Assembly: GCF_024700885.2 (NCBI RefSeq)
Contig: NZ_CP117016.1
Source: Escherichia coli
GTDB lineage: Bacteria > Pseudomonadota > Gammaproteobacteria > Enterobacterales > Enterobacteriaceae
DNA: 64,000 bases
Direction: 5' to 3' (one strand)
Part shown: piece after piece, positions 6,423 through 18,309 of the stretch
Numbering within the stretch: the stretch's first letter is position 1
How the letters are laid out: the number at the start of each line of letters is the position of its first letter
The notes under the pieces: model-generated
What the model saw: the letters and a program-made list of their open reading frames with translations, nothing else
Told to the model about the DNA's origin: nothing
The model's database searches: none
Position numbers and translations under genes: made by a program

Positions 6423-7648
6423 GATAACGGTTCATGTATCCCCTGAGCTGACAGTGTACCGGTTATATTAAGCGTAACCGACAGGTTCTCCTTCATACCA
6501 TATTAAATTTTTCCAGGTATTGCCGCTGCCTTATTTCGTCCCATACAGGAAAACTCGTCTGGGTTTCTGACAAATACGTGAAACTCACAGCCCCTCAATA
6601 TCAACCACACGCTGTAAGCCGGTAATACCTGAAAATCAGCCTATTACCGCCCACGCCTCCGGCACTATTCCCTTTTGATTTCGAATTCTTTGTTGTCGCT
6701 ATACCGTGTAACATCACCGATACCACACACCGGCACAGATAACACCGGACTTATCGTAGCGCTGCTTCAATATTCAGGTGACATATTTCCAGACGGAAGC
6801 CGGCACGCGATCGTAAAATTTGCGGTCAGTTCTGCCAGCCGGTTGTCAACGGCAGAGTTAAAGGCTTCCAGCTCCGCAAGGGTAAGTTTATAACGCGTGT
6901 GGGAATTCACTTTTCCCGCGTCTCCTGACGTATTACGGGCTGCCACTTACCTGGTGTCCCGCAATACAGCCTTAGTGTTCCGTTATCGGGGATCCGGACG
7001 CACCGCAACAACCGGGGAAGTATTTCTGGTTAGAGCTGTGTCAAGAGGGATTTCTCAGCCCCTCACTCACCGGCTCAGTTTCAGGGCAGGAGCATTAATA
7101 CGCTCAGTTCATGTCTTATACAGGAATGGGCATAGGGGGAGCTGGCGTGTCACTGCTGATTTTACGCATCAGCGTTCATGTATTTGCACTCTGATACAGA
7201 ATGCTTCACAGCGCTCTGTTACCGGAGAGATTTACTCTCTTAGGTTATTCTGGCAAATCCTTTACGTTACTCTCTGATAACTTCTTATATTTATAATACC
7301 AATCAGACAGCCTTATCCCACCAGTGATACCTGTCCCGGCCCACAAGGCACGGGCTGCCCCACCGTAACTGCCCCGTAAATAACTCTGCAATTATCAGAA
7401 CGCCAGTTTTCCCCTCTTCCTCACGAAAATCATCCCTTCTTTATCGCGCGCGCGTGCGGAAGCATCGTTTCGTAACAACCACCCGGCATACCGGTACGGC
7501 TCAGCCACCGTAACCTCCCCGTTTATCTCCTGGCGGTCACATTCCCGATTATTTTTTACGTTTCTCCCCGGTTGTTATGCCGGTGAAGGTGGTGCGTTGT
7601 TTTCATGACCACACCGGCTGGTTTAACAACATCCGGAGGAACATTCTC

Positions 7649-7855
7649 ATGATCACCCCAGTTTCACTGATGGATGACCAGATGGTCGACATGGCATTTA
7701 TCACTCAACTGACCGGCCTGACCGATAAGTGGTTTTACAAACTCATCAAGGATGGTGACTTTCCTGCGCCCATCAAAATGGGCCGCAGCTCCCGATGGCT
7801 GAAAAGCGAAGTGGAAGCCTGGCTGCAGGCGCGTATTGCACAGTCCCGTCCGTAA
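7649..7855 (+). CDS. alpA: AlpA-family prophage transcriptional regulator
   Basis: LTGLTDKWFYKLIKDGDFPAPIKMGRSSRWLKSEVEAWL is the AlpA HTH signature; GGAGGA Shine-Dalgarno before ATG 7649. Confidence 0.8.
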   Translation: MITPVSLMDDQMVDMAFITQLTGLTDKWFYKLIKDGDFPAPIKMGRSSRWLKSEVEAWLQARIAQSRP

Positions 7856-7935
7856 TTCTTAACCGTTCATCTGCAACAGACGCAGTCTCCGGCCTGCCGG
7901 CGGCGTTCTGCTGCCTGTTATCCCCCGTGAGGAAT

Positions 7936-8544
7936 ATGAAAATGAAACCACAGTATCAGACCCGTTACGAGCTGCTCCACGAAAGCTACCAGAAATGGCT
8001 GACCGGCTTCACCCGGCACGCCGTATCCTGGGGCGTGTGTCATCCGAATATCTACTACTTCCATAATCTGACGCCCGGGTGGGTGTCATTCAATGGTGAA
8101 AAACCGGAGATTGCCATCGTACCCCAGAGTCTGCACCGGCTGATTTATGGTCCGGACAAACGGACCACGCCGCCCCTGGATGATGATCTGATAGTGAATT
8201 TATGCACCAGTGAACATCTGCTGGTTCATCATCCGATGCTGGAAGGCATTCTCCTGTCTGAATGTGAACGTCTGAGGCAGCGTTCGCTGGCAAATAAACT
8301 GATCAGCCTCTTCCGTCAGTTTGGTGGCACGGAGTTGCGCCTCAAACTGGTCTGGCTTTGCTGGCTTGATTTAATGACCGGAAACTGCCTTGACGACTGG
8401 ACGGAGAATCTGAAACGGAAATCAGAAAAAGAGCTGGAGGAATGGATCATCAACCGTCAGAAGCAGAGCGCAGCACTGACGGATCTGATGGATCAGTACG
8501 TGCTCCTGGCATACCGCACAACGGTTGACGATAAGCGCACCTGA
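7936..8544 (+). CDS. hypothetical protein (202 aa) downstream of alpA
   Basis: ORF with GTGAGGAA Shine-Dalgarno before ATG 7936 (start MKMKPQYQ). Confidence 0.5.
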   Translation: MKMKPQYQTRYELLHESYQKWLTGFTRHAVSWGVCHPNIYYFHNLTPGWVSFNGEKPEIAIVPQSLHRLIYGPDKRTTPPLDDDLIVNLCTSEHLLVHHPMLEGILLSECERLRQRSLANKLISLFRQFGGTELRLKLVWLCWLDLMTGNCLDDWTENLKRKSEKELEEWIINRQKQSAALTDLMDQYVLLAYRTTVDDKRT

Positions 8545-11580: not shown

Positions 11581-12453
11581 ATGAATCCGTCTGATGCCAT
11601 TGAGGCAATTGAAAAACCGCTCTCCTCCCTGCCTTACTCGCTTTCCCGTCACATCCTGGAACATCTGCGCAAACTCACCCGTCACGAACCCGTGATTGGC
11701 ATTATGGGTAAAAGCGGGGCCGGTAAATCCTCACTCTGTAATGCACTGTTTCAGGGGGAGGTCACCCCGGTCAGTGATGTTCACGCCGGCACCCGGGAAG
11801 TACGGCGCTTCCGTCTGAGTGGCCACGGTCACAGCATGGTTATCACTGACCTGCCCGGGGTGGGCGAGAGCCGGGACAGGGATGCAGAGTATGAGGCCCT
11901 GTACCGTGACATTCTGCCTGAACTTGACCTGGTACTGTGGCTGATTAAAGCCGATGACCGTGCCCTGTCTGTGGATGAGTATTTCTGGCGACACATCCTG
12001 CACCGGGGACATCAGCGGGTACTGTTTGTGGTGACGCAGGCCGACAAAACGGAGCCCTGCCATGAATGGGATATGGCCGGTATTCAGCCTTCTCCTGCAC
12101 AGGCACAGAATATTCGCGAAAAAACGGAGGCGGTATTCCGTCTGTTCCGGCCCGTACATCCGGTTGTGGCCGTATCGGCCCGCACCGGCTGGGAACTGGA
12201 TACGCTGGTCAGTGCGCTCATGACAGCGCTTCCCGACCATGCCGCCAGTCCCCTGATGACCCGACTGCAGGACGAGCTGCGCACGGAATCTGTCCGGTCT
12301 CAGGCCCGTGAACAGTTTACCGGTGCGGTGGACCGGATATTTGACACGGCGGAGAGCGTCTGTATTGCCTCTGTTGCACGCACGGTTCTGCGTGCCGTCC
12401 GTGACTCGGTGGTCTCTGTTGCCCGCGCTGTATGGAACTGGATTTTCTTCTGA
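11581..12453 (+). CDS. yeeP: YeeP/YkfA/YfjP-family GTPase
   Basis: P-loop GIMGKSGAGKSSLCNAL, then DLPGVG and TQADK motifs; positioned upstream of flu as in CP4-44. Confidence 0.7.
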   Translation: MNPSDAIEAIEKPLSSLPYSLSRHILEHLRKLTRHEPVIGIMGKSGAGKSSLCNALFQGEVTPVSDVHAGTREVRRFRLSGHGHSMVITDLPGVGESRDRDAEYEALYRDILPELDLVLWLIKADDRALSVDEYFWRHILHRGHQRVLFVVTQADKTEPCHEWDMAGIQPSPAQAQNIREKTEAVFRLFRPVHPVVAVSARTGWELDTLVSALMTALPDHAASPLMTRLQDELRTESVRSQAREQFTGAVDRIFDTAESVCIASVARTVLRAVRDSVVSVARAVWNWIFF

Positions 12454-12572
12454 ACACTCTGCCAGGGGAAATGCCTGATTATATTGCATTAACAAACTGA
12501 AAACATGACACAAACCCCTCATACTCCTCCTGTTTCTCTTGCGTGACCGCCTTGTCGTTAATAGAATAAAAC

Positions 12573-12608
12573 GATCGATAAAACAGGTATCGATCGCTAC
12601 TATCGATC
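12573..12608 (+). promoter_or_regulatory. agn43 phase-variation switch: three GATC Dam sites within the OxyR-binding region
   Basis: GATC at 12573, 12592 and 12605 in AACGATCGATAAAACAGGTATCGATCGCTACTATCGATCGTTTATAG, about 220 bp upstream of the flu ATG. Confidence 0.7.
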
Positions 12609-12825
12609 GTTTATAGTGGTTAATGGCCTGCGAAAAGGCAGCTGAATCTCTTCATCATGCAGAACGGAATTGCACACAACGGACTGATACTTCTCTGGCG
12701 GATGAGAGAGGGGAAGCATTTATGTCCGGGAAAAACCACTTTATCTGACCATGCTGTTTTGTACCTGCCGGTATCCACATTTGTGGGTACCGGCTTTTTT
12801 ATTCACCCTCTGTAAGGAAAAGCTG

Positions 12826-15672
12826 ATGAAACGACATCTGAACACCAGCTACAGGCTGGTATGGAATCACATTACGGGTACCCTGGTGGTGGCCTCCGAA
12901 CTGGCCCGCTCACGGGGAAAACGCGCCGGTGTGGCGATTGCGCTGTCTCTTGCTGCTGTCACATCAGTCCCGGCACTGGCTGCTGACACGGTTGTACAGG
13001 CGGGAGAAACCGTGAGCGGCGGAACACTGACAAATCATGACAACCAGATTGTTCTCGGTACGGCCAACGGAATGACCATCAGTACCGGTCTGGAGTATGG
13101 GCCGGATAACGAGGCCAATACCGGCGGGCAATGGGTACAGGATGGCGGCACAGCCAGTAATACCGCCATCAGCAGCGGCGGTCTCCAGTTTGTAGGTGCC
13201 GGGGGAAAGGCTACAGACACAATAATCAATGAAGGAGGCGGACAAAGTCTGAAGGGACTGGCACTGAACACCACGCTGAATGGTGGCGAGCAGTGGATGC
13301 ATGAGGGTGCGATAGCCACAGGAACCGTCATTAATGATAAGGGCTGGCAGGTCGTCAAATCCGGCGCAATGGCAACCGACACGGTTGTGAATACCGGCGC
13401 GGAAGGGGGACCGGATGCAGAAAATGGTGATACCGGGCAGTTTGTTCGCGGAAATGCCGTACGTACCACCATCAATAAAAATGGTCGTCAGATTGTGGCT
13501 GCTGAAGGAACAGCAAATACCACTATGGTTTATGCCGGCGGAGACCAGACTGTACATGGCTACGCGCTGGATACCACACTGAACGGCGGTAACCAGTATG
13601 TGCACAACGGCGGTACAGCGTCTGACACTGTTGTTAACAGTGACGGCTGGCAGGTGGTGAAGGATGGTGCAGTGGCTGAGAATACCACCGTTAATCACAA
13701 GGGCAAACTGCAGGTGAATGCCGGTGGTGTCGCTGTTGATGTTACTCAGAATCAGGGAGGGGCACTGGTTACCAGTACTGCTGCAACGGTTCTTGGCAGC
13801 AACCGTCTGGGCAATTTCGCGGTGGAAAACGGTAAGGCTGACGGCGTGGTTCTGGAATCCGGTGGTCGCCTGGATGTACTGGAGAGCCATTCAGCACAGA
13901 ATACCCTGGTGGATGACGGCGGTACCCTGGCAGTGTCTGCCGGTGGTAAGGCAACAGGTGTCACCATGACATCCGGTGGTGCCCTGATAGCAGACAGTGG
14001 TGCCACTGTTGAGGGTACCAATGCCAGCGGCAAGTTCAGTATTGATGGCATATCCGGTCAGGCCAGCGGCCTGCTGCTGGAAAATGGCGGCAGCTTTACG
14101 GTCAATGCCGGGGGACAAGCCAGCAACACCACGATCGGACATCGTGGAACACTGACGCTGGCTGCCGGGGGAAGTCTGAGTGGCAGAACACAACTCAGTA
14201 AAGGCGCCAGTATGGTACTGAATGGTGATGTGGTCAGTACCGGCGATATTGTTAACGCAGGGGAGATTCGCTTTGATAATCAGACGACACAGGATGCCGT
14301 GCTGAGCCGTGCTGTTGCAAAAGGCGACGCCCCGGTAACGTTCCATAAACTGACCACCAATAACCTCACCGGCCAGGGCGGCACCATCAATATGCGTGTT
14401 CGCCTTGATGGCAGCAATGCCTCTGACCAGCTGGTGATTAATGGTGGTCAGGCAACCGGCAAAACCTGGCTTGCGTTTACAAATGTCGGAAACAGTAACC
14501 TCGGGGTGGCAACCACCGGACAGGGTATCCGGGTTGTGGATGCACAGAATGGTGCCACCACAGAAGAAGGTGCATTTGCCCTGAGCCGCCCGCTTCAGGC
14601 CGGCGCCTTTAACTACACCCTGAACCGTGACAGCGATGAAGACTGGTACCTGCGCAGTGAAAATGCTTATCGTGCTGAAGTCCCCCTGTATGCCTCCATG
14701 CTGACACAGGCAATGGACTATGACCGGATTCTGGCAGGCTCCCGCAGCCATCAGACCGGTGTAAACGGTGAAAATAACAGCGTCCGTCTCAGCATTCAGG
14801 GCGGTCATCTCGGTCACGATAACAACGGCGGTATTGCCCGTGGAGCCACGCCGGAAAGCAGCGGCAGCTATGGCTTCGTCCGTCTGGAGGGTGACCTGCT
14901 CAGAACAGAGGTCGCCGGTATGTCTGTGACCGCGGGGGTATATGGTGCTGCTGGCCATTCTTCCGTTGATGTTAAGGATGATGACGGTTCCCGCGCCGGC
15001 ACGGTCCGGGATGATGCCGGCAGCCTGGGCGGATACCTGAATCTGGTACACACGTCCTCCGGCCTGTGGGCTGACATTGTGGCACAGGGAACCCGCCACA
15101 GCATGAAAGCGTCATCGGACAATAACAACTTCCGCGCCCGGGGCCGGGGCTGGCTGGGCTCACTGGAAACCGGTCTGCCCTTCAGTATCACTGACAACCT
15201 GATGCTGGAGCCACAACTGCAGTACACCTGGCAGGGGCTCTCCCTGGATGACGGCCAGGATAACGCCGGTTATGTGAAGTTCGGGCATGGCAGTACACAA
15301 CATGTGCGTGCCGGCTTCCGTCTGGGCAGCCACAACGATATGACCTTTGGCGAAGGCACCTCATCCCGTGACACCCTGCGCGACAGTACAAAACACCGTG
15401 TGAGTGAACTGCCGGTGAACTGGTGGGTACAGCCTTCTGTTATCCGCACTTTCAGCTCCCGGGGTGACATGAGCATGGGTACAGCCGCCGCCAGCAGTAA
15501 CATGACGTTCTCACCGTCCCGGAATGGCACGTCACTGGACCTGCAGGCCGGACTGGAAGCCCGTGTCCGGGAAAATATCACCCTGGGCGTTCAGGCCGGT
15601 TATGCCCACAGCGTCAGCGGCAGCAGCGCTGAAGGCTATAACGGTCAGGCCACGCTGAGTGTGACCTTCTGA
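12826..15672 (+). CDS. flu: antigen 43 self-associating autotransporter adhesin
   Basis: MKRHLNTSYRLVWNHITGTLVVASELARSRGKRAGVAIALSLAAVTSVPALAADTVV signal region and near-identical C-terminal translocator; AAGGAAAAG before ATG. Confidence 0.9.
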   Translation: MKRHLNTSYRLVWNHITGTLVVASELARSRGKRAGVAIALSLAAVTSVPALAADTVVQAGETVSGGTLTNHDNQIVLGTANGMTISTGLEYGPDNEANTGGQWVQDGGTASNTAISSGGLQFVGAGGKATDTIINEGGGQSLKGLALNTTLNGGEQWMHEGAIATGTVINDKGWQVVKSGAMATDTVVNTGAEGGPDAENGDTGQFVRGNAVRTTINKNGRQIVAAEGTANTTMVYAGGDQTVHGYALDTTLNGGNQYVHNGGTASDTVVNSDGWQVVKDGAVAENTTVNHKGKLQVNAGGVAVDVTQNQGGALVTSTAATVLGSNRLGNFAVENGKADGVVLESGGRLDVLESHSAQNTLVDDGGTLAVSAGGKATGVTMTSGGALIADSGATVEGTNASGKFSIDGISGQASGLLLENGGSFTVNAGGQASNTTIGHRGTLTLAAGGSLSGRTQLSKGASMVLNGDVVSTGDIVNAGEIRFDNQTTQDAVLSRAVAKGDAPVTFHKLTTNNLTGQGGTINMRVRLDGSNASDQLVINGGQATGKTWLAFTNVGNSNLGVATTGQGIRVVDAQNGATTEEGAFALSRPLQAGAFNYTLNRDSDEDWYLRSENAYRAEVPLYASMLTQAMDYDRILAGSRSHQTGVNGENNSVRLSIQGGHLGHDNNGGIARGATPESSGSYGFVRLEGDLLRTEVAGMSVTAGVYGAAGHSSVDVKDDDGSRAGTVRDDAGSLGGYLNLVHTSSGLWADIVAQGTRHSMKASSDNNNFRARGRGWLGSLETGLPFSITDNLMLEPQLQYTWQGLSLDDGQDNAGYVKFGHGSTQHVRAGFRLGSHNDMTFGEGTSSRDTLRDSTKHRVSELPVNWWVQPSVIRTFSSRGDMSMGTAAASSNMTFSPSRNGTSLDLQAGLEARVRENITLGVQAGYAHSVSGSSAEGYNGQATLSVTF

Positions 15673-15792
15673 CAGAACCATCGCCTCTCTGTGGTCCCGG
15701 TCATCATGATCGGGACCCGGACCGGCGCAACGGATATTCAACGCCACATTCGCTGGCATTAACAATAACATGATATTCATCACGGAGTGACT

Positions 15793-18309
15793 ATGTTACA
15801 GATAGTCGGCGCGCTGATCCTGCTGATCGCAGGATTTGCCATTCTTCGCCTTTTGTTCAGAGCATTAATCAGCACGGCTTCTGCGCTGGCAGGGCTCATA
15901 TTGCTGTGTCTGTTCGGCCCGGCCTTACTGGCTGGCTATATCACCGAACGCATAACCCGGTTGTTCCATATTCGCTGGCTGGCAGGCGTATTTCTGACGA
16001 TTGCCGGAATGATCATCAGCTTCATGTGGGGACTTGATGGTAAACATATCGCGCTGGAGGCTCACACCTTTGACTCTGTGAAATTTATTCTGACCACCGC
16101 TCTCGCCGGTGGTCTGCTGGCTGTTCCCCTGCAGATCAAAAACATTCAGCAGAACGGGATCACACCAGAAGATATCAGCAAGGAAATTAACGGGTATTAC
16201 TGCTGTTTTTATACTGCCTTTTTCCTTATGGCGTGTTCTGCATGCGCACCATTGATCGCGTTACAGTACGATATTTCACCGTCACTGATGTGGTGGGGCG
16301 GGTTGTTGTACTGGCTGGCTGCATTAGTGACGCTGCTATGGGCGGCCAGCCAAATCCAGGCGCTGAAAAAACTGACCTGTGCCATCAGCCAGACACTGGA
16401 AGAACAACCGGTGCTCAACAGTAAATCGTGGCTGACCAGTTTGCAAAACGATTACAGCCTTCCTGACTCACTGACGGAGCGCATCTGGCTGACGCTCATT
16501 TCTCAACGGATTTCCCGGGGAGAGCTGAGGGAATTTGAACTGGCAGACGGAAACTGGTTACTGAACAATGCCTGGTATGAAAGAAACATGGCAGGGTTTA
16601 ACGAACAGTTGAAAGAGAACCTGTCATTCACACCTGATGAACTGAAAACGCTCTTCCGGAACCGCCTGAATTTATCACCGGAAGCGAATGACGATTTTCT
16701 CGATCGTTGCCTGGACGGCGGTGACTGGTATCCCTTTTCAGAAGGTCGCCGTTTTGTATCATTCCATCACGTGGATGAGCTTCGTATCTGTGCCTCCTGC
16801 GGGCTGACAGAAGTACATCATGCCCCGGAAAATCATAAGCCGGATCCGGAATGGTACTGCTCCTCTCTTTGTCGCGAAACAGAAACACTGTGTCAGGAAA
16901 TTTATGAACGCCCTTACAACAGCTTTATTTCCGATGCAACGGCGAATGGTCTGATTCTCATGAAACTGCCGGAAACCTGGAGTACAAATGAGAAAATGTT
17001 TGCTTCCGGAGGGCAGGGACATGGGTTTGCCGCTGAACGGGGAAACCATATTGTCGACAGAGTCCGTCTGAAAAACGCACGGATCCTCGGTGATAATAAT
17101 GCCAGAAATGGAGCAGACAGACTGGTCAGCGGAACAGAAATCCAGACGAAATATTGTTCAACTGCAGCCCGTAGCGTCGGTGCGGCATTCGACGGACAAA
17201 ACGGACAGTATCGTTACATGGGAAATAATGGCCCCATGCAACTGGAAGTCCCCCGTGATCAGTATGCCGGCGCTGTTGAAACCATGAGGAATAAGATCCG
17301 CGAAGGTAAAGTACCCGGTGTAACCGATCCCGCAGAAGCATCCCGGCTGATTCGTCGGGGACATCTGACTTATACTCAGGCCCGTAATATCACCCGGTTC
17401 GGGACCATCGAATCGGTCACTTATGATATTGCCGAGGGTTCGGTTGTCAGTCTGGCGGCCGGAGGGATCAGTTTTGCCCTGACGGCATCGGTCTTCTGGC
17501 TCAGCACCGGCGATCGCGATGCTGCCCTGCAGACAGCTGCTGTCCAGGCAGGAAAAACCTTCACCCGCACACTGGCTGTCTACGTCACAACCCAGCAACT
17601 CCACCGGCTCAGTGTTGTTCAGGGTATGCTGAAGCACATTGATTTTTCGACTGCCAGCCCGGCTGTTCGACTGGCTCTTCAGAAGGGGACCGGTGCAGGA
17701 AATATCAGTGCCCTGAACAAAGTGATGAAGGGTACGCTGGTGACATCTCTGGCACTGGTAGCTGTCACAACCGGCCCTGACATGATCAAAATGTTGCGGG
17801 GACGGATCTCCGGTACGCAGTTCATCAGGAATCTTGCCGTGGCATCTTCCGGTGTGGCAGGTGGTGCTGTCGGGTCAGTGGCGGGCGGAATACTGTTCAG
17901 TCCACTGGGACCATTTGGTGCACTGACAGGGCGTGTGGTTGGCGGTGTTCTGGGGGGAATGATTGCCTCCGCTGTATCAGGAAAAATTGCCGGAGCGCTG
18001 GTTGAAGAAGATCGCGTCAAAATTCTGGCAATGATTCAGGAGCAGGTGACATGGCTTGCCGGCAGTTTCCTGCTGACCGGACATGAGATTGAAAATCTGA
18101 ACGAGAATCTGGCCCGTGTTATCGATCAGAATGCTCTGGAGATCATTTTCGCCGCCGGTATACAACAACGGGCCGCGACCAATATGTTAATCAAACCACT
18201 GGTGGTCAGTATCATCAGGCAACGCCCCGTCATGGAATATGATGCATCCCATCTCGGCAATATGGTTAACCGACTGGAAGAAGCATTACCCCCGGAGTTA
18301 CCGGCATAA
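15793..18309 (+). CDS. yeeR: YeeR-like inner membrane protein (838 aa) with C-terminal glycine-zipper segment
   Basis: Position immediately after flu; N-terminal TM helices; GGAVGSVAGGILFSPLGPFGALTGRVVGGVLGGMIASAVSG near C-terminus. Confidence 0.55.
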   Translation: MLQIVGALILLIAGFAILRLLFRALISTASALAGLILLCLFGPALLAGYITERITRLFHIRWLAGVFLTIAGMIISFMWGLDGKHIALEAHTFDSVKFILTTALAGGLLAVPLQIKNIQQNGITPEDISKEINGYYCCFYTAFFLMACSACAPLIALQYDISPSLMWWGGLLYWLAALVTLLWAASQIQALKKLTCAISQTLEEQPVLNSKSWLTSLQNDYSLPDSLTERIWLTLISQRISRGELREFELADGNWLLNNAWYERNMAGFNEQLKENLSFTPDELKTLFRNRLNLSPEANDDFLDRCLDGGDWYPFSEGRRFVSFHHVDELRICASCGLTEVHHAPENHKPDPEWYCSSLCRETETLCQEIYERPYNSFISDATANGLILMKLPETWSTNEKMFASGGQGHGFAAERGNHIVDRVRLKNARILGDNNARNGADRLVSGTEIQTKYCSTAARSVGAAFDGQNGQYRYMGNNGPMQLEVPRDQYAGAVETMRNKIREGKVPGVTDPAEASRLIRRGHLTYTQARNITRFGTIESVTYDIAEGSVVSLAAGGISFALTASVFWLSTGDRDAALQTAAVQAGKTFTRTLAVYVTTQQLHRLSVVQGMLKHIDFSTASPAVRLALQKGTGAGNISALNKVMKGTLVTSLALVAVTTGPDMIKMLRGRISGTQFIRNLAVASSGVAGGAVGSVAGGILFSPLGPFGALTGRVVGGVLGGMIASAVSGKIAGALVEEDRVKILAMIQEQVTWLAGSFLLTGHEIENLNENLARVIDQNALEIIFAAGIQQRAATNMLIKPLVVSIIRQRPVMEYDASHLGNMVNRLEEALPPELPA

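Follow-up and report, generated by a model that had tools for sequence, protein, structure and literature searches.

Introduction

The autotransporter Antigen 43 (Ag43) is encoded in Escherichia coli by agn43 (flu), and the mechanism by which Dam and OxyR switch this gene has been described (PMC3764049, PMC13337833). Expression of flu has also been reported to be under the control of antitermination by IsrC, a statement made in PMC5389530 with citation of Wallecha 2014. In the Ag43 family, the members of subfamily SF-II (classes C2, C4, C5 and C6), which make up ~56% of Ag43 sequences, have a standard length of 948/949 aa (PMC10058404), and the C4 representatives that we compared from Table S1 of that study are all 948 aa long. 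The C4 prototype aggregates (PMC6668479), as did a short allele of EAEC 042, which aggregated like long alleles (PMC2808357). Aggregation differences between the classes have been ascribed to residues in the interface of the SL subdomain (PMC8993888, PMC6668479).

Here we describe an agn43 locus in a 64-kb stretch of E. coli DNA (hereafter, the window). We consider that positions 12539–15672 represent, with a probability of roughly 90%, an intact, island-borne agn43 locus of class C4 (SL1b-EJ2-BL2), SF-II, with a promoter, three-GATC box, leader with terminator, Shine-Dalgarno sequence and an autotransporter gene for which switching is expected. The anatomy of the locus, its class membership, intactness, conservation and prevalence are matters of observation. 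Its features are already known, as it belongs to a well-described short class of Ag43 and is neither a new nor a damaged variant.

Locus Organization and Reading Frame

The features of the locus are listed in Table 1. The open reading frame (12826–15672) is uninterrupted and its translation gives 948 aa plus a stop, with the ATG at 12826. The same start codon is used in the RefSeq entry WP_151298310.1 in strain MLI114. An in-frame ATG at 12751, which would give a protein of 973 aa, was considered and rejected: it lies 5′ of the terminator hairpin, has no Shine-Dalgarno sequence and is missing in K-12, and RefSeq begins at 12826. Neighbors of agn43 in the island have decayed: a YeeU-type antitoxin gene has an internal stop, tssK is frameshifted, and IS elements have inserted.

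Table 1. Features of the agn43 locus, with positions in the window.
Feature	Position	Strand	Details
Putative sigma-70 promoter	12539..12567	+	-35 TTGCGT 12539-12544, spacer 17 nt, -10 TAGAAT 12562-12567
Dam/OxyR switch box (OxyR part putative)	12571..12608	+	GATC-I 12573-12576, GATC-II 12592-12595, GATC-III 12605-12608
agn43 leader RNA, IsrC / IS102 family	12571..12807	+	Rfam RF00124, 72.5 bits, gathering score 46
Intrinsic-terminator hairpin	12767..12803	+	Hairpin 12767-12794, 12 pairs (8 G-C), then TTTTTTATT
Shine-Dalgarno AAGGA	12814..12818	+	7 nt 5′ of ATG; conserved in all alleles
agn43 (flu) coding sequence	12826..15672	+	948 aa, class C4 / subfamily SF-II; NF033177 match
Extended signal peptide (ESPR), aa 1-52	12826..12981	+	Pfam PF13018; boundary as given in Table S1 of PMC10058404
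SL subdomain (SL1b), aa 53-307, adhesive stem of the L-shaped beta-helix	12982..13746	+	Identity to C4 SL1b
EJ2 (aa 308-392) and BL2 (aa 393-482)	13747..14271	+	Identity to C4 EJ2 / BL2
Segment without K-12 DNA homology	14112..14358	+	247 nt replace 520 nt of K-12, giving the 91-codon difference (blastn, BLASTP gaps)
Translocation unit, aa 483-948	14272..15669	+	AC_1 aa 488-599 (Pfam PF18883), beta-barrel aa 674-924 (PF03797)

Promoter, Switch Box and Leader RNA

The putative promoter assignment is by homology to the agn43 promoter of K-12 only. A generic promoter scan called no sigma-70 site at agn43 because the -35 element is weak. The -10 hexamer and the AAAACGATC directly after it were invariant in an alignment of five diverged alleles (C4, O157 cah, another short allele, a long allele and K-12). 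Transcription probably starts at about 12573, where the annotation of K-12 isrC begins, so that the GATC box would start together with the transcript. The interval that had been highlighted in the first-pass annotation, 12560–12826, runs from the -10 hexamer to the A of the ATG.

The three GATC sites sit just 3′ of the -10 hexamer TAGAAT, and in the five-allele alignment they are in register and lie 19 and 13 bp apart, exactly as in K-12. The box is the only instance of the pattern GATC-N15-GATC-N9-GATC in the window (0.00 expected from 100 shuffles). The flanks within the box, ACGATC and TATCGATCG (present twice), are also invariant across the alleles. When read in the K-12 register, the box matched the OxyR consensus at 10/20 positions, compared to 14/20 in K-12 (scan and hand count). 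The distal half-site B has 8/10 matches in both sequences, whereas hand counting of the promoter-proximal half-site A against the ATAGnTnnnAnCTAT consensus gave 2/10 in the window and 6/10 in K-12. Other registers score 12/20 at the box, and scores of at least 12 were rare, being found at 64 of the 63,964 positions of the 64 kb. Several OxyR registers are tied because ATCGAT recurs, so that the scan alone neither proves nor disproves binding. The earlier claim that the three-GATC OxyR site is conserved is thus borne out in part: it holds for the GATC sites, their spacing and their flanks, but half-site A matches less well than in K-12. The poorer match of that half-site suggests that OxyR affinity and the switching rate may differ here from those of K-12. 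The oxyR and dam genes lie outside the window.

The leader matched the RF00124 covariance model over positions 1–206 of 206, and posterior probabilities were high across the terminator stem. In the K-12 annotation, isrC occupies the corresponding place. Its predicted fold has a z score of -2.8 relative to shuffled sequences. The terminator forms the stem at the 3′ side of this model, was also found by a search independent of Rfam, lies ~25 nt 5′ of the ATG and is nearly identical in K-12 and in every allele compared. Between these conserved ends, blastn detected no similarity of 12609–12761 to the K-12 leader. Overall, the leader (~235 nt in total) is ~40 nt longer than that of K-12.

From experiments in K-12 and homology, we infer OxyR binding, methylation states, switching, terminator read-through and aggregation at this locus. 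Expression of agn43 would be expected to be heritably ON or OFF. In the OFF state, reduced OxyR on the unmethylated GATC box would block transcription and shield the sites from Dam; in the ON state, Dam would have reached the three sites first after replication, so that OxyR is excluded. Read-through of the leader terminator would add a second level of control. The protein would then be exported via its ESPR signal peptide and beta-barrel, and the SL stem of its L-shaped beta-helix would pair head-to-tail with Ag43 on neighboring cells, giving rise to clumping and biofilm.

Prevalence and Expected Switching of the Majority-Type Region

A 311-nt regulatory region of the same type was present in 3444 of 5426 complete E. 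coli genomes, where it is located 5′ of long and short alleles alike. The regulatory region in the window is therefore the majority type of E. coli, and the K-12 leader is the unusual one. The DNA segment specific to SL1b showed a bimodal distribution, with at least 95% identity in 238 of the 5426 genomes and 80–90% identity in 2157. This particular allele is rare, as only 4 of the 4518 records that matched in the 5426 genomes were at least 99% identical over the 3.4-kb locus.

Because half-site A is poorer and the central leader is longer and unrelated, the majority-type region might switch with a different ON/OFF bias than K-12 or lean more heavily on antitermination. In addition, the divergent last rungs of the SL stem (aa 273–316) might change the set of other Ag43 classes with which the allele can pair. 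We regard this reading as unlikely. If switching did prove to differ, the textbook parameters from K-12 would miss most natural agn43 loci. Our literature searches for direct phase variation or unmethylated GATC sites at non-K-12 agn43 promoters returned citations on K-12 only; they found no paper directly showing that the majority-type region depends on OxyR and Dam, nor documentation of its quantitative switching.

A related reading, in which the GATC sites are kept and the switch is nonetheless unlike that of K-12 (with another ON/OFF bias, locked ON, or with control mainly via the leader terminator), appears improbable. The half-site A counts and the leader differences described above speak for such a switch. 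However, the GATC sites do not vary between the alleles, and neither do their spacing and palindromic flanks, although the sequence around them has diverged; this points to selection for the same mechanism. In addition, the form in the window is that of the E. coli majority, reviews treat both allelic groups as phase-variable under Dam and OxyR, and the OxyR consensus is loose, with several registers reaching 12/20 here. A canonical Dam/OxyR switch is the reading that we prefer for this locus.

Protein Architecture and Length

Residues 1–948 of the protein aligned with positions 1–948 of the NCBIfam Ag43/Cah profile NF033177 (1946.9 bits, cut-off 1200), a model that is itself 948 positions long. 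The type Va architecture is complete, comprising the ESPR signal peptide (PF13018, aa 6–49), a beta-helix of AIDA repeats (PF16168, five stretches), a type 1 autochaperone (PF18883, aa 488–599) and the C-terminal beta-barrel (PF03797, aa 674–924). The subdomain lengths are those of the C4 rows in Table S1 of PMC10058404, with a passenger of ~430 aa and a total of 948 aa. The SL subdomain is 90.2–92.5% identical to three C4 SL1b subdomains, compared to 83.5–84.3% to those of SL1a type (83.5% for K-12) and 67–72% to SL2. EJ is 90.6% identical to C4 EJ2 versus 68% to K-12 EJ1, and BL is 96.7% identical to C4 BL2 versus 44% to K-12 BL1; the translocation unit is 86% identical to that of K-12. By subdomain identity, the protein is a member of class C4 (SF-II), with class C5 (SL1c, 0.3% of sequences) being excluded only via the shared C4 signature. 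UTI89 and P0002 served as the SL1a/EJ2-BL2 (C6-like) comparators. P0001 (1039 aa) had been considered as a long allele carrying the stem found in the window and was not used, as it is a 948-type protein in which an internal stretch of 91 aa is duplicated in tandem, which may be an artifact of assembly.

The first-pass annotation had noted a protein of 948 aa that was shorter than K-12 Ag43 (~1039 aa), had placed the difference in the passenger domain, and had proposed an allelic variant with possibly different aggregation properties, to be checked by alignment to K-12 and UPEC alleles. The lengths are correct (K-12 Flu has 1039 aa), and the alignments gave a 91-aa deficit relative to K-12 and no gap relative to residues 53–613 of UTI89 Ag43. 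The deficit maps by BLASTP between K-12 residues ~361 and 600; together with the DNA comparison in Table 1, this places it in the last part of the alpha-passenger and the first part of the beta/autochaperone region. The placement therefore stands insofar as the difference is in the secreted beta-helix region and spares the barrel, and requires amendment in that 22 of the 91 aa fall beyond the alpha-domain according to the domain boundaries published in PMC10058404. On these alignments, the deficit is a swapped EJ2-BL2-AC module lying across the alpha/beta cleavage site of K-12, and not a deletion. The swap is located at the foot of the beta-helix and where the autochaperone begins, and leaves the adhesive SL stem untouched. 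The gene is indeed an intact allelic variant whose product has 91 aa fewer than that of K-12, although its shortening is not unusual, 948/949 aa being standard for SF-II.

That the short length instead reflects a K-12-like gene that has decayed or lost an internal part, leaving a damaged or non-functional adhesin, might be suggested by the 91 missing residues, the gathering of the gaps in one region and the decayed island neighbors, but this is already refuted by the alignments and has next to no likelihood: the frame is unbroken, all 948 positions of the family model are matched, the alignment with a crystallized, functional homologue of the 948-aa class is gapless, the differing segment is another module (EJ2-BL2-AC) that is 91–97% identical to other SF-II proteins, and both processing and aggregation are documented for short alleles (PMC2808357; PMC6668479).

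The window allele keeps each of the nine residues to which self-association was mapped in UTI89 Ag43 (G13, G30, T32, N60, D79, T80, T98, N100 and N137). Based on homology and these conserved interface residues, the allele would be expected to autoaggregate. The suggestion that its length might change aggregation found no backing, as published work draws no link to length (PMC2808357, PMC8993888, PMC6668479). The locus is correctly labeled as a class C4 (SF-II) Ag43 with a canonical three-GATC switch and an IsrC-type leader, rather than as a truncated or unusual adhesin. Beyond correct annotation, this matters little.

Comparison with Described Relatives

The C4 prototype, Ag43 of ETEC H10407 (WP_014640065.1; Ageorges 2019 and 2023), is also 948 aa long and has the same layout as the window protein (signal peptide 52, SL 255, EJ 85, BL 90 and translocation unit 466 residues). 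The two are 90.2% (SL), 90.6% (EJ) and 96.7% (BL) identical and have in common the SL1b signature ASNT[TA]ISSGGLQFVGAGGKATDTIINEGGGQSLKGLALNTTLNGGEQWMHEGAIATGTVINDKGWQVVK. They differ at ~10% of SL residues, clustered in aa 273–316 (WQVVKDGAVAENTTVNHKGKLQVNAGGVAVDVTQNQ), a stretch that diverged from every reference compared (14–17 identities per 22 residues).

Ag43 of UPEC UTI89 (PDB 7KO9; Vo 2022, PMC8993888) is of the same length class, and its crystallized region (53–613) is 89.8% identical to the window protein without gaps. Its SL resembles SL1a, with identity to the window protein falling to 27–31 per 40 residues within mature residues 41–120, and residues adjoining the interface differ between UTI89 and the window (e.g., S59 versus N59, and K76-A77-T78 versus S76-V77-S78). 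Cah of EHEC O157:H7 (class C2; PDB 7KOH) shares the SF-II module EJ2-BL2-AC with the window protein, and its regulatory region is of the same type (89.5% identical over 311 nt). Cah differs in having 949 aa and an SL2a stem that is ~72% identical to that in the window.

K-12 flu/agn43 (b2000; class C1, SF-I) belongs to the same family and has the same neighborhood, with a yeeP-like GTPase gene upstream and yeeR downstream. K-12 and the window have the same, or almost the same, -10 hexamer, three GATC sites with their spacing, terminator, Shine-Dalgarno sequence and start codon. In contrast, the K-12 protein has 1039 aa with EJ1-BL1-AC, compared to 948 aa with EJ2-BL2-AC in the window (BL 44% identical), the central leader of K-12 is unrelated and ~40 nt shorter, and its OxyR half-site A is nearer to the consensus. 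Because the 948/949-aa forms and this leader type are the E. coli majority, these differences are not anomalies of the window locus, and K-12 flu is the atypical reference.

Class and Length of the Antigen 43 Protein

Translation of the agn43 (flu) open reading frame gave a protein of 948 aa with the N-terminus MKRHLNTSYRLVWNH, against 1039 aa for K-12 MG1655 flu (b2000; comparison record L001), bearing out the lengths reported in the first-pass annotation. Its Pfam domains are an ESPR signal peptide, AIDA repeats, an AC_1 autochaperone and an autotransporter barrel. The NCBIfam model NF033177 (auto_Ag43) matched residues 1-948 on profile positions 1-948 of 948 (1947 bits), whereas its match to K-12 flu was split into two stretches, and it is therefore K-12 that is the deviating form.

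Ageorges et al. (2019, PMC6668479; 2023, PMC10058404) divide the Ag43 passenger into stem (SL), elbow (EJ) and base (BL) subdomains and the proteins into classes C1-C6, with C1 and C3 in SF-I (EJ1-BL1, passenger ~500 aa, 44.1% of sequences) and C2, C4, C5 and C6 in SF-II (EJ2-BL2, ~430 aa, 55.9%). In their Table S1, K-12 (C1) has SP 52, SL 271, EJ 85, BL 143 and translocation unit (TU) 488, total 1039, and ETEC H10407, the C4 prototype, has SP 52, SL 255, EJ 85, BL 90 and TU 466, total 948. All C4 representatives that we compared were 948 aa long and carried the signature ASNT[TA]ISSGGLQFVGAGGKATDTIINEGGGQSLKGLALNTTLNGGEQWMHEGAIATGTVINDKGWQVVK, which is also present in the window protein. The window SL was 90.2-92.5% identical to C4 SL1b, 83.5% to K-12 SL1a and 67-72% to SL2 types; its EJ was 90.6% identical to EJ2 and 68% to EJ1, and its BL 96.7% to BL2 and 44% to BL1. 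Because these identities favour SL1b, EJ2 and BL2, the protein is assigned by its sequence to the Ag43/Cah family, SF-II, class C4 (SL1b-EJ2-BL2). An allelic variant had been proposed, and in outline that was right, but the shortness is the norm in a family where SF-II is the majority and the profile has 948 positions, and is no anomaly.

The 2023 survey (PMC10058404) put C4 at 4.8% of Ag43 sequences. Our counts are consistent with this: 238 of 5426 complete genomes had the SL1b-specific DNA segment at ≥95% identity, and a clean gap separated them from the other types at 80-90%. The exact allele is uncommon, being found at ≥99% identity over 3.4 kb in 4 of 4518 matching records from the 5426 genomes. 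Residues 273-316 are locally divergent, which fits the domain shuffling known from earlier work on this family.

Location of the 91-aa Difference

Overall identity to K-12 flu was 71% (BLASTP), with clean alignment over residues 1-360 and the final ~440 residues and all 91 gap positions within K-12 residues ~361-600. With the published boundaries, SL accounts for 16 aa of the deficit, BL for 53 and the N-terminal end of the TU for 22. The 16 aa of SL reflect a shifted boundary, since the gapless alignment of the two proteins extends to about residue 364. The deficit had been placed in the passenger, which by those boundaries holds for all but the 22 aa in the TU. In the DNA alignment, agn43 was 81% identical to K-12 in its 5' part, as far as 14111, and 95% identity resumed beyond a dissimilar 247-nt segment through the 3' part of the gene and yeeR. 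The length difference is thus a replaced module at the helix base and autochaperone start, spanning the K-12 alpha/beta cleavage site. Exactly such a replacement was described for the two allelic groups by Chaudhuri et al. 2010 (PMC2808357).

The adhesive stem keeps its length. Residues 52-613 aligned without gaps to UPEC UTI89 Ag43 (7KO9) and EDL933 Cah (7KOH), entries identified via PMC8993888, with 89.8% identity to UTI89 residues 53-613. All nine residues of the UTI89 self-association interface (G13, G30, T32, N60, D79, T80, T98, N100 and N137; PMC8993888) are kept. Published work does not support the suggestion that the shorter passenger might alter aggregation, length not being the known determinant: the short allele Ec042-4803 has a smaller passenger, yet its aggregation and biofilm formation are like those of long alleles (PMC2808357).

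Switch Region and Leader RNA

The sequence of 12560-12826 reads AATAGAATAAAACGATCGATAAAACAGGTATCGATCGCTACTATCGATCGTTTATAG and then runs on to the agn43 ATG at 12826. Its GATC triplet, with N15 and N9 spacing, occurred once in the 64-kb window and in none of 100 dinucleotide-preserving shuffles. In an alignment of the regulatory regions of five alleles (the window, O157 cah, another short allele, the long agn43 of strain PAR, and K-12), the three-GATC arrangement was kept throughout, and the -10 TAGAAT, AAAACGATC and two TATCGATCG motifs were invariant or nearly so. The terminator hairpin and Shine-Dalgarno/ATG region were identical except for one hairpin-loop base and, just 5' of the Shine-Dalgarno, a 2-nt indel and one substitution. 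The sequence around these elements has diverged, most of all in K-12. The window switch region is the common form, since 3444 of 5426 genomes carry its 311-nt region at ≥80% coverage (the genes downstream of it being variously annotated agn43, Ag43/Cah or cah), whereas K-12-type genomes match it over the last ~70 nt only.

In K-12, OxyR bound to an unmethylated GATC box shuts off transcription and keeps Dam away, OxyR cannot bind once the three sites are methylated, and replication restarts the competition (PMC3764049; PMC13337833; PMC2909390). That mechanism is established, and conservation suggests that it would apply at the window locus. Scored against ATAGnTnnnAnCTAT-N7-ATAGnTnnnAnCTAT in the K-12 register over 20 positions, partly by hand count, K-12 matched the OxyR consensus at 14/20 and the window at 10/20. 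The promoter-proximal half-site matched at 6 positions in K-12 and 2 in the window, and the distal half-site at 8 in both; the GATC-II to GATC-III differences hit non-consensus positions only. The first-pass claim of a conserved OxyR site is therefore only partly borne out, by the GATCs and flanking motifs but less so by the proximal half-site, and switching may differ quantitatively from K-12. Our literature search, whose reach did not extend to the primary footprinting papers, found no paper directly testing the majority-type regulatory region.

The RF00124 match begins at GATC-I and finishes with the terminator stem, and the K-12 record (L001) has isrC annotated in the homologous place. Antitermination of IsrC is reported to control flu (PMC5389530, in a passage citing Wallecha 2014). 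A leader mini-ORF and an in-frame ATG 5' of the terminator hairpin have no obvious Shine-Dalgarno, are both absent from K-12 and are probably incidental.

Features of the agn43 locus and its surroundings
Feature	Position (strand)	Basis or detail
IsrC/IS102 family (RF00124) leader	12571-12807	Rfam 72.5 bits, gathering score 46
GATC sites	12573, 12592, 12605	read from window sequence
Leader mini-ORF, 8 codons	12722-12748	ATG TCC GGG AAA AAC CAC TTT ATC TGA
ATG in frame with agn43	12751	
Intrinsic terminator hairpin, then T-run	12767-12794	independent terminator search
agn43	12826-15672	
Segment without K-12 similarity	14112-14358	corresponds to 520 nt in K-12
YeeR, full length	15787-18309 (+)	838-840 aa
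IS66 element (tnpABC)	18960-21274	
ISEc10 (IS21 family)	~26671-28918	interrupts DUF4942 gene
Decayed neighbours	~23846-24908; start to ~404	MLI114 record (L002) 31447-32509; 6667-8005
JUMPstart element	46243-46281 (-)	Rfam 58.5 bits
C0719 sRNA	61056-61277 (+)	Rfam 299 bits

Genomic Setting

The locus is 100% identical to that of E. coli MLI114 (human stool, Mali), in which the gene is annotated as 'Ag43/Cah family autotransporter adhesin' (WP_151298310.1). The surrounding genes (YfjI, YeeP-like GTPase, agn43, yeeR, irmA, IS66, DUF905, DUF932, antirestriction, RadC, YeeT, a YeeU pseudogene and CbtA) are a typical genomic-island module, flanked on one side by a type VI secretion cluster and on the other by a group 2 capsule (kps) cluster, gsp type II secretion genes and sslE. 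No tRNA genes were found in the 64-kb window. The IS66 element separates irmA from the DUF905/DUF932/antirestriction block, the JUMPstart element is inside the kps cluster, and C0719 is between kps and the gsp genes. In the MLI114 annotation, tssK, which encodes a type VI baseplate component, is frameshifted, and two antitoxin genes (one YeeU-type) located 5' of a cbtA-family toxin gene have internal stops; the toxin gene itself is intact.

The agn43 query matched four places in the MLI114 chromosome. Further paralogues of the Ag43 family are probable in this strain, a situation reported for many E. coli (PMC10058404). A 1039-aa database protein, P0001, was set aside: it is an Ag43 of the 948 type that contains an exact internal tandem duplication of 91 aa, its K-12 length is coincidental, and, coming from a single 15.6-kb contig, it may be an assembly artefact.

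Comparison with the K-12 Locus

Identity to K-12 CP4-44 across 11901-17313, where DNA homology ends, was strongly mosaic. The yeeP-like GTPase was 98.6% identical and YeeR 100% at the protein level, whereas between them most of the leader was unalignable and agn43 was just 81% identical in its 5' part. This pattern suggests recombination or diversifying exchange limited to agn43 and its leader. K-12 YeeR (510 aa) appears to be C-terminally truncated, because it is 100% identical to window YeeR across 507 residues and then stops; a Pfam search of window YeeR gave no domain above threshold. Overall, the window agn43 combines an IsrC-type leader with the standard three-GATC switch, and is nothing new in kind.
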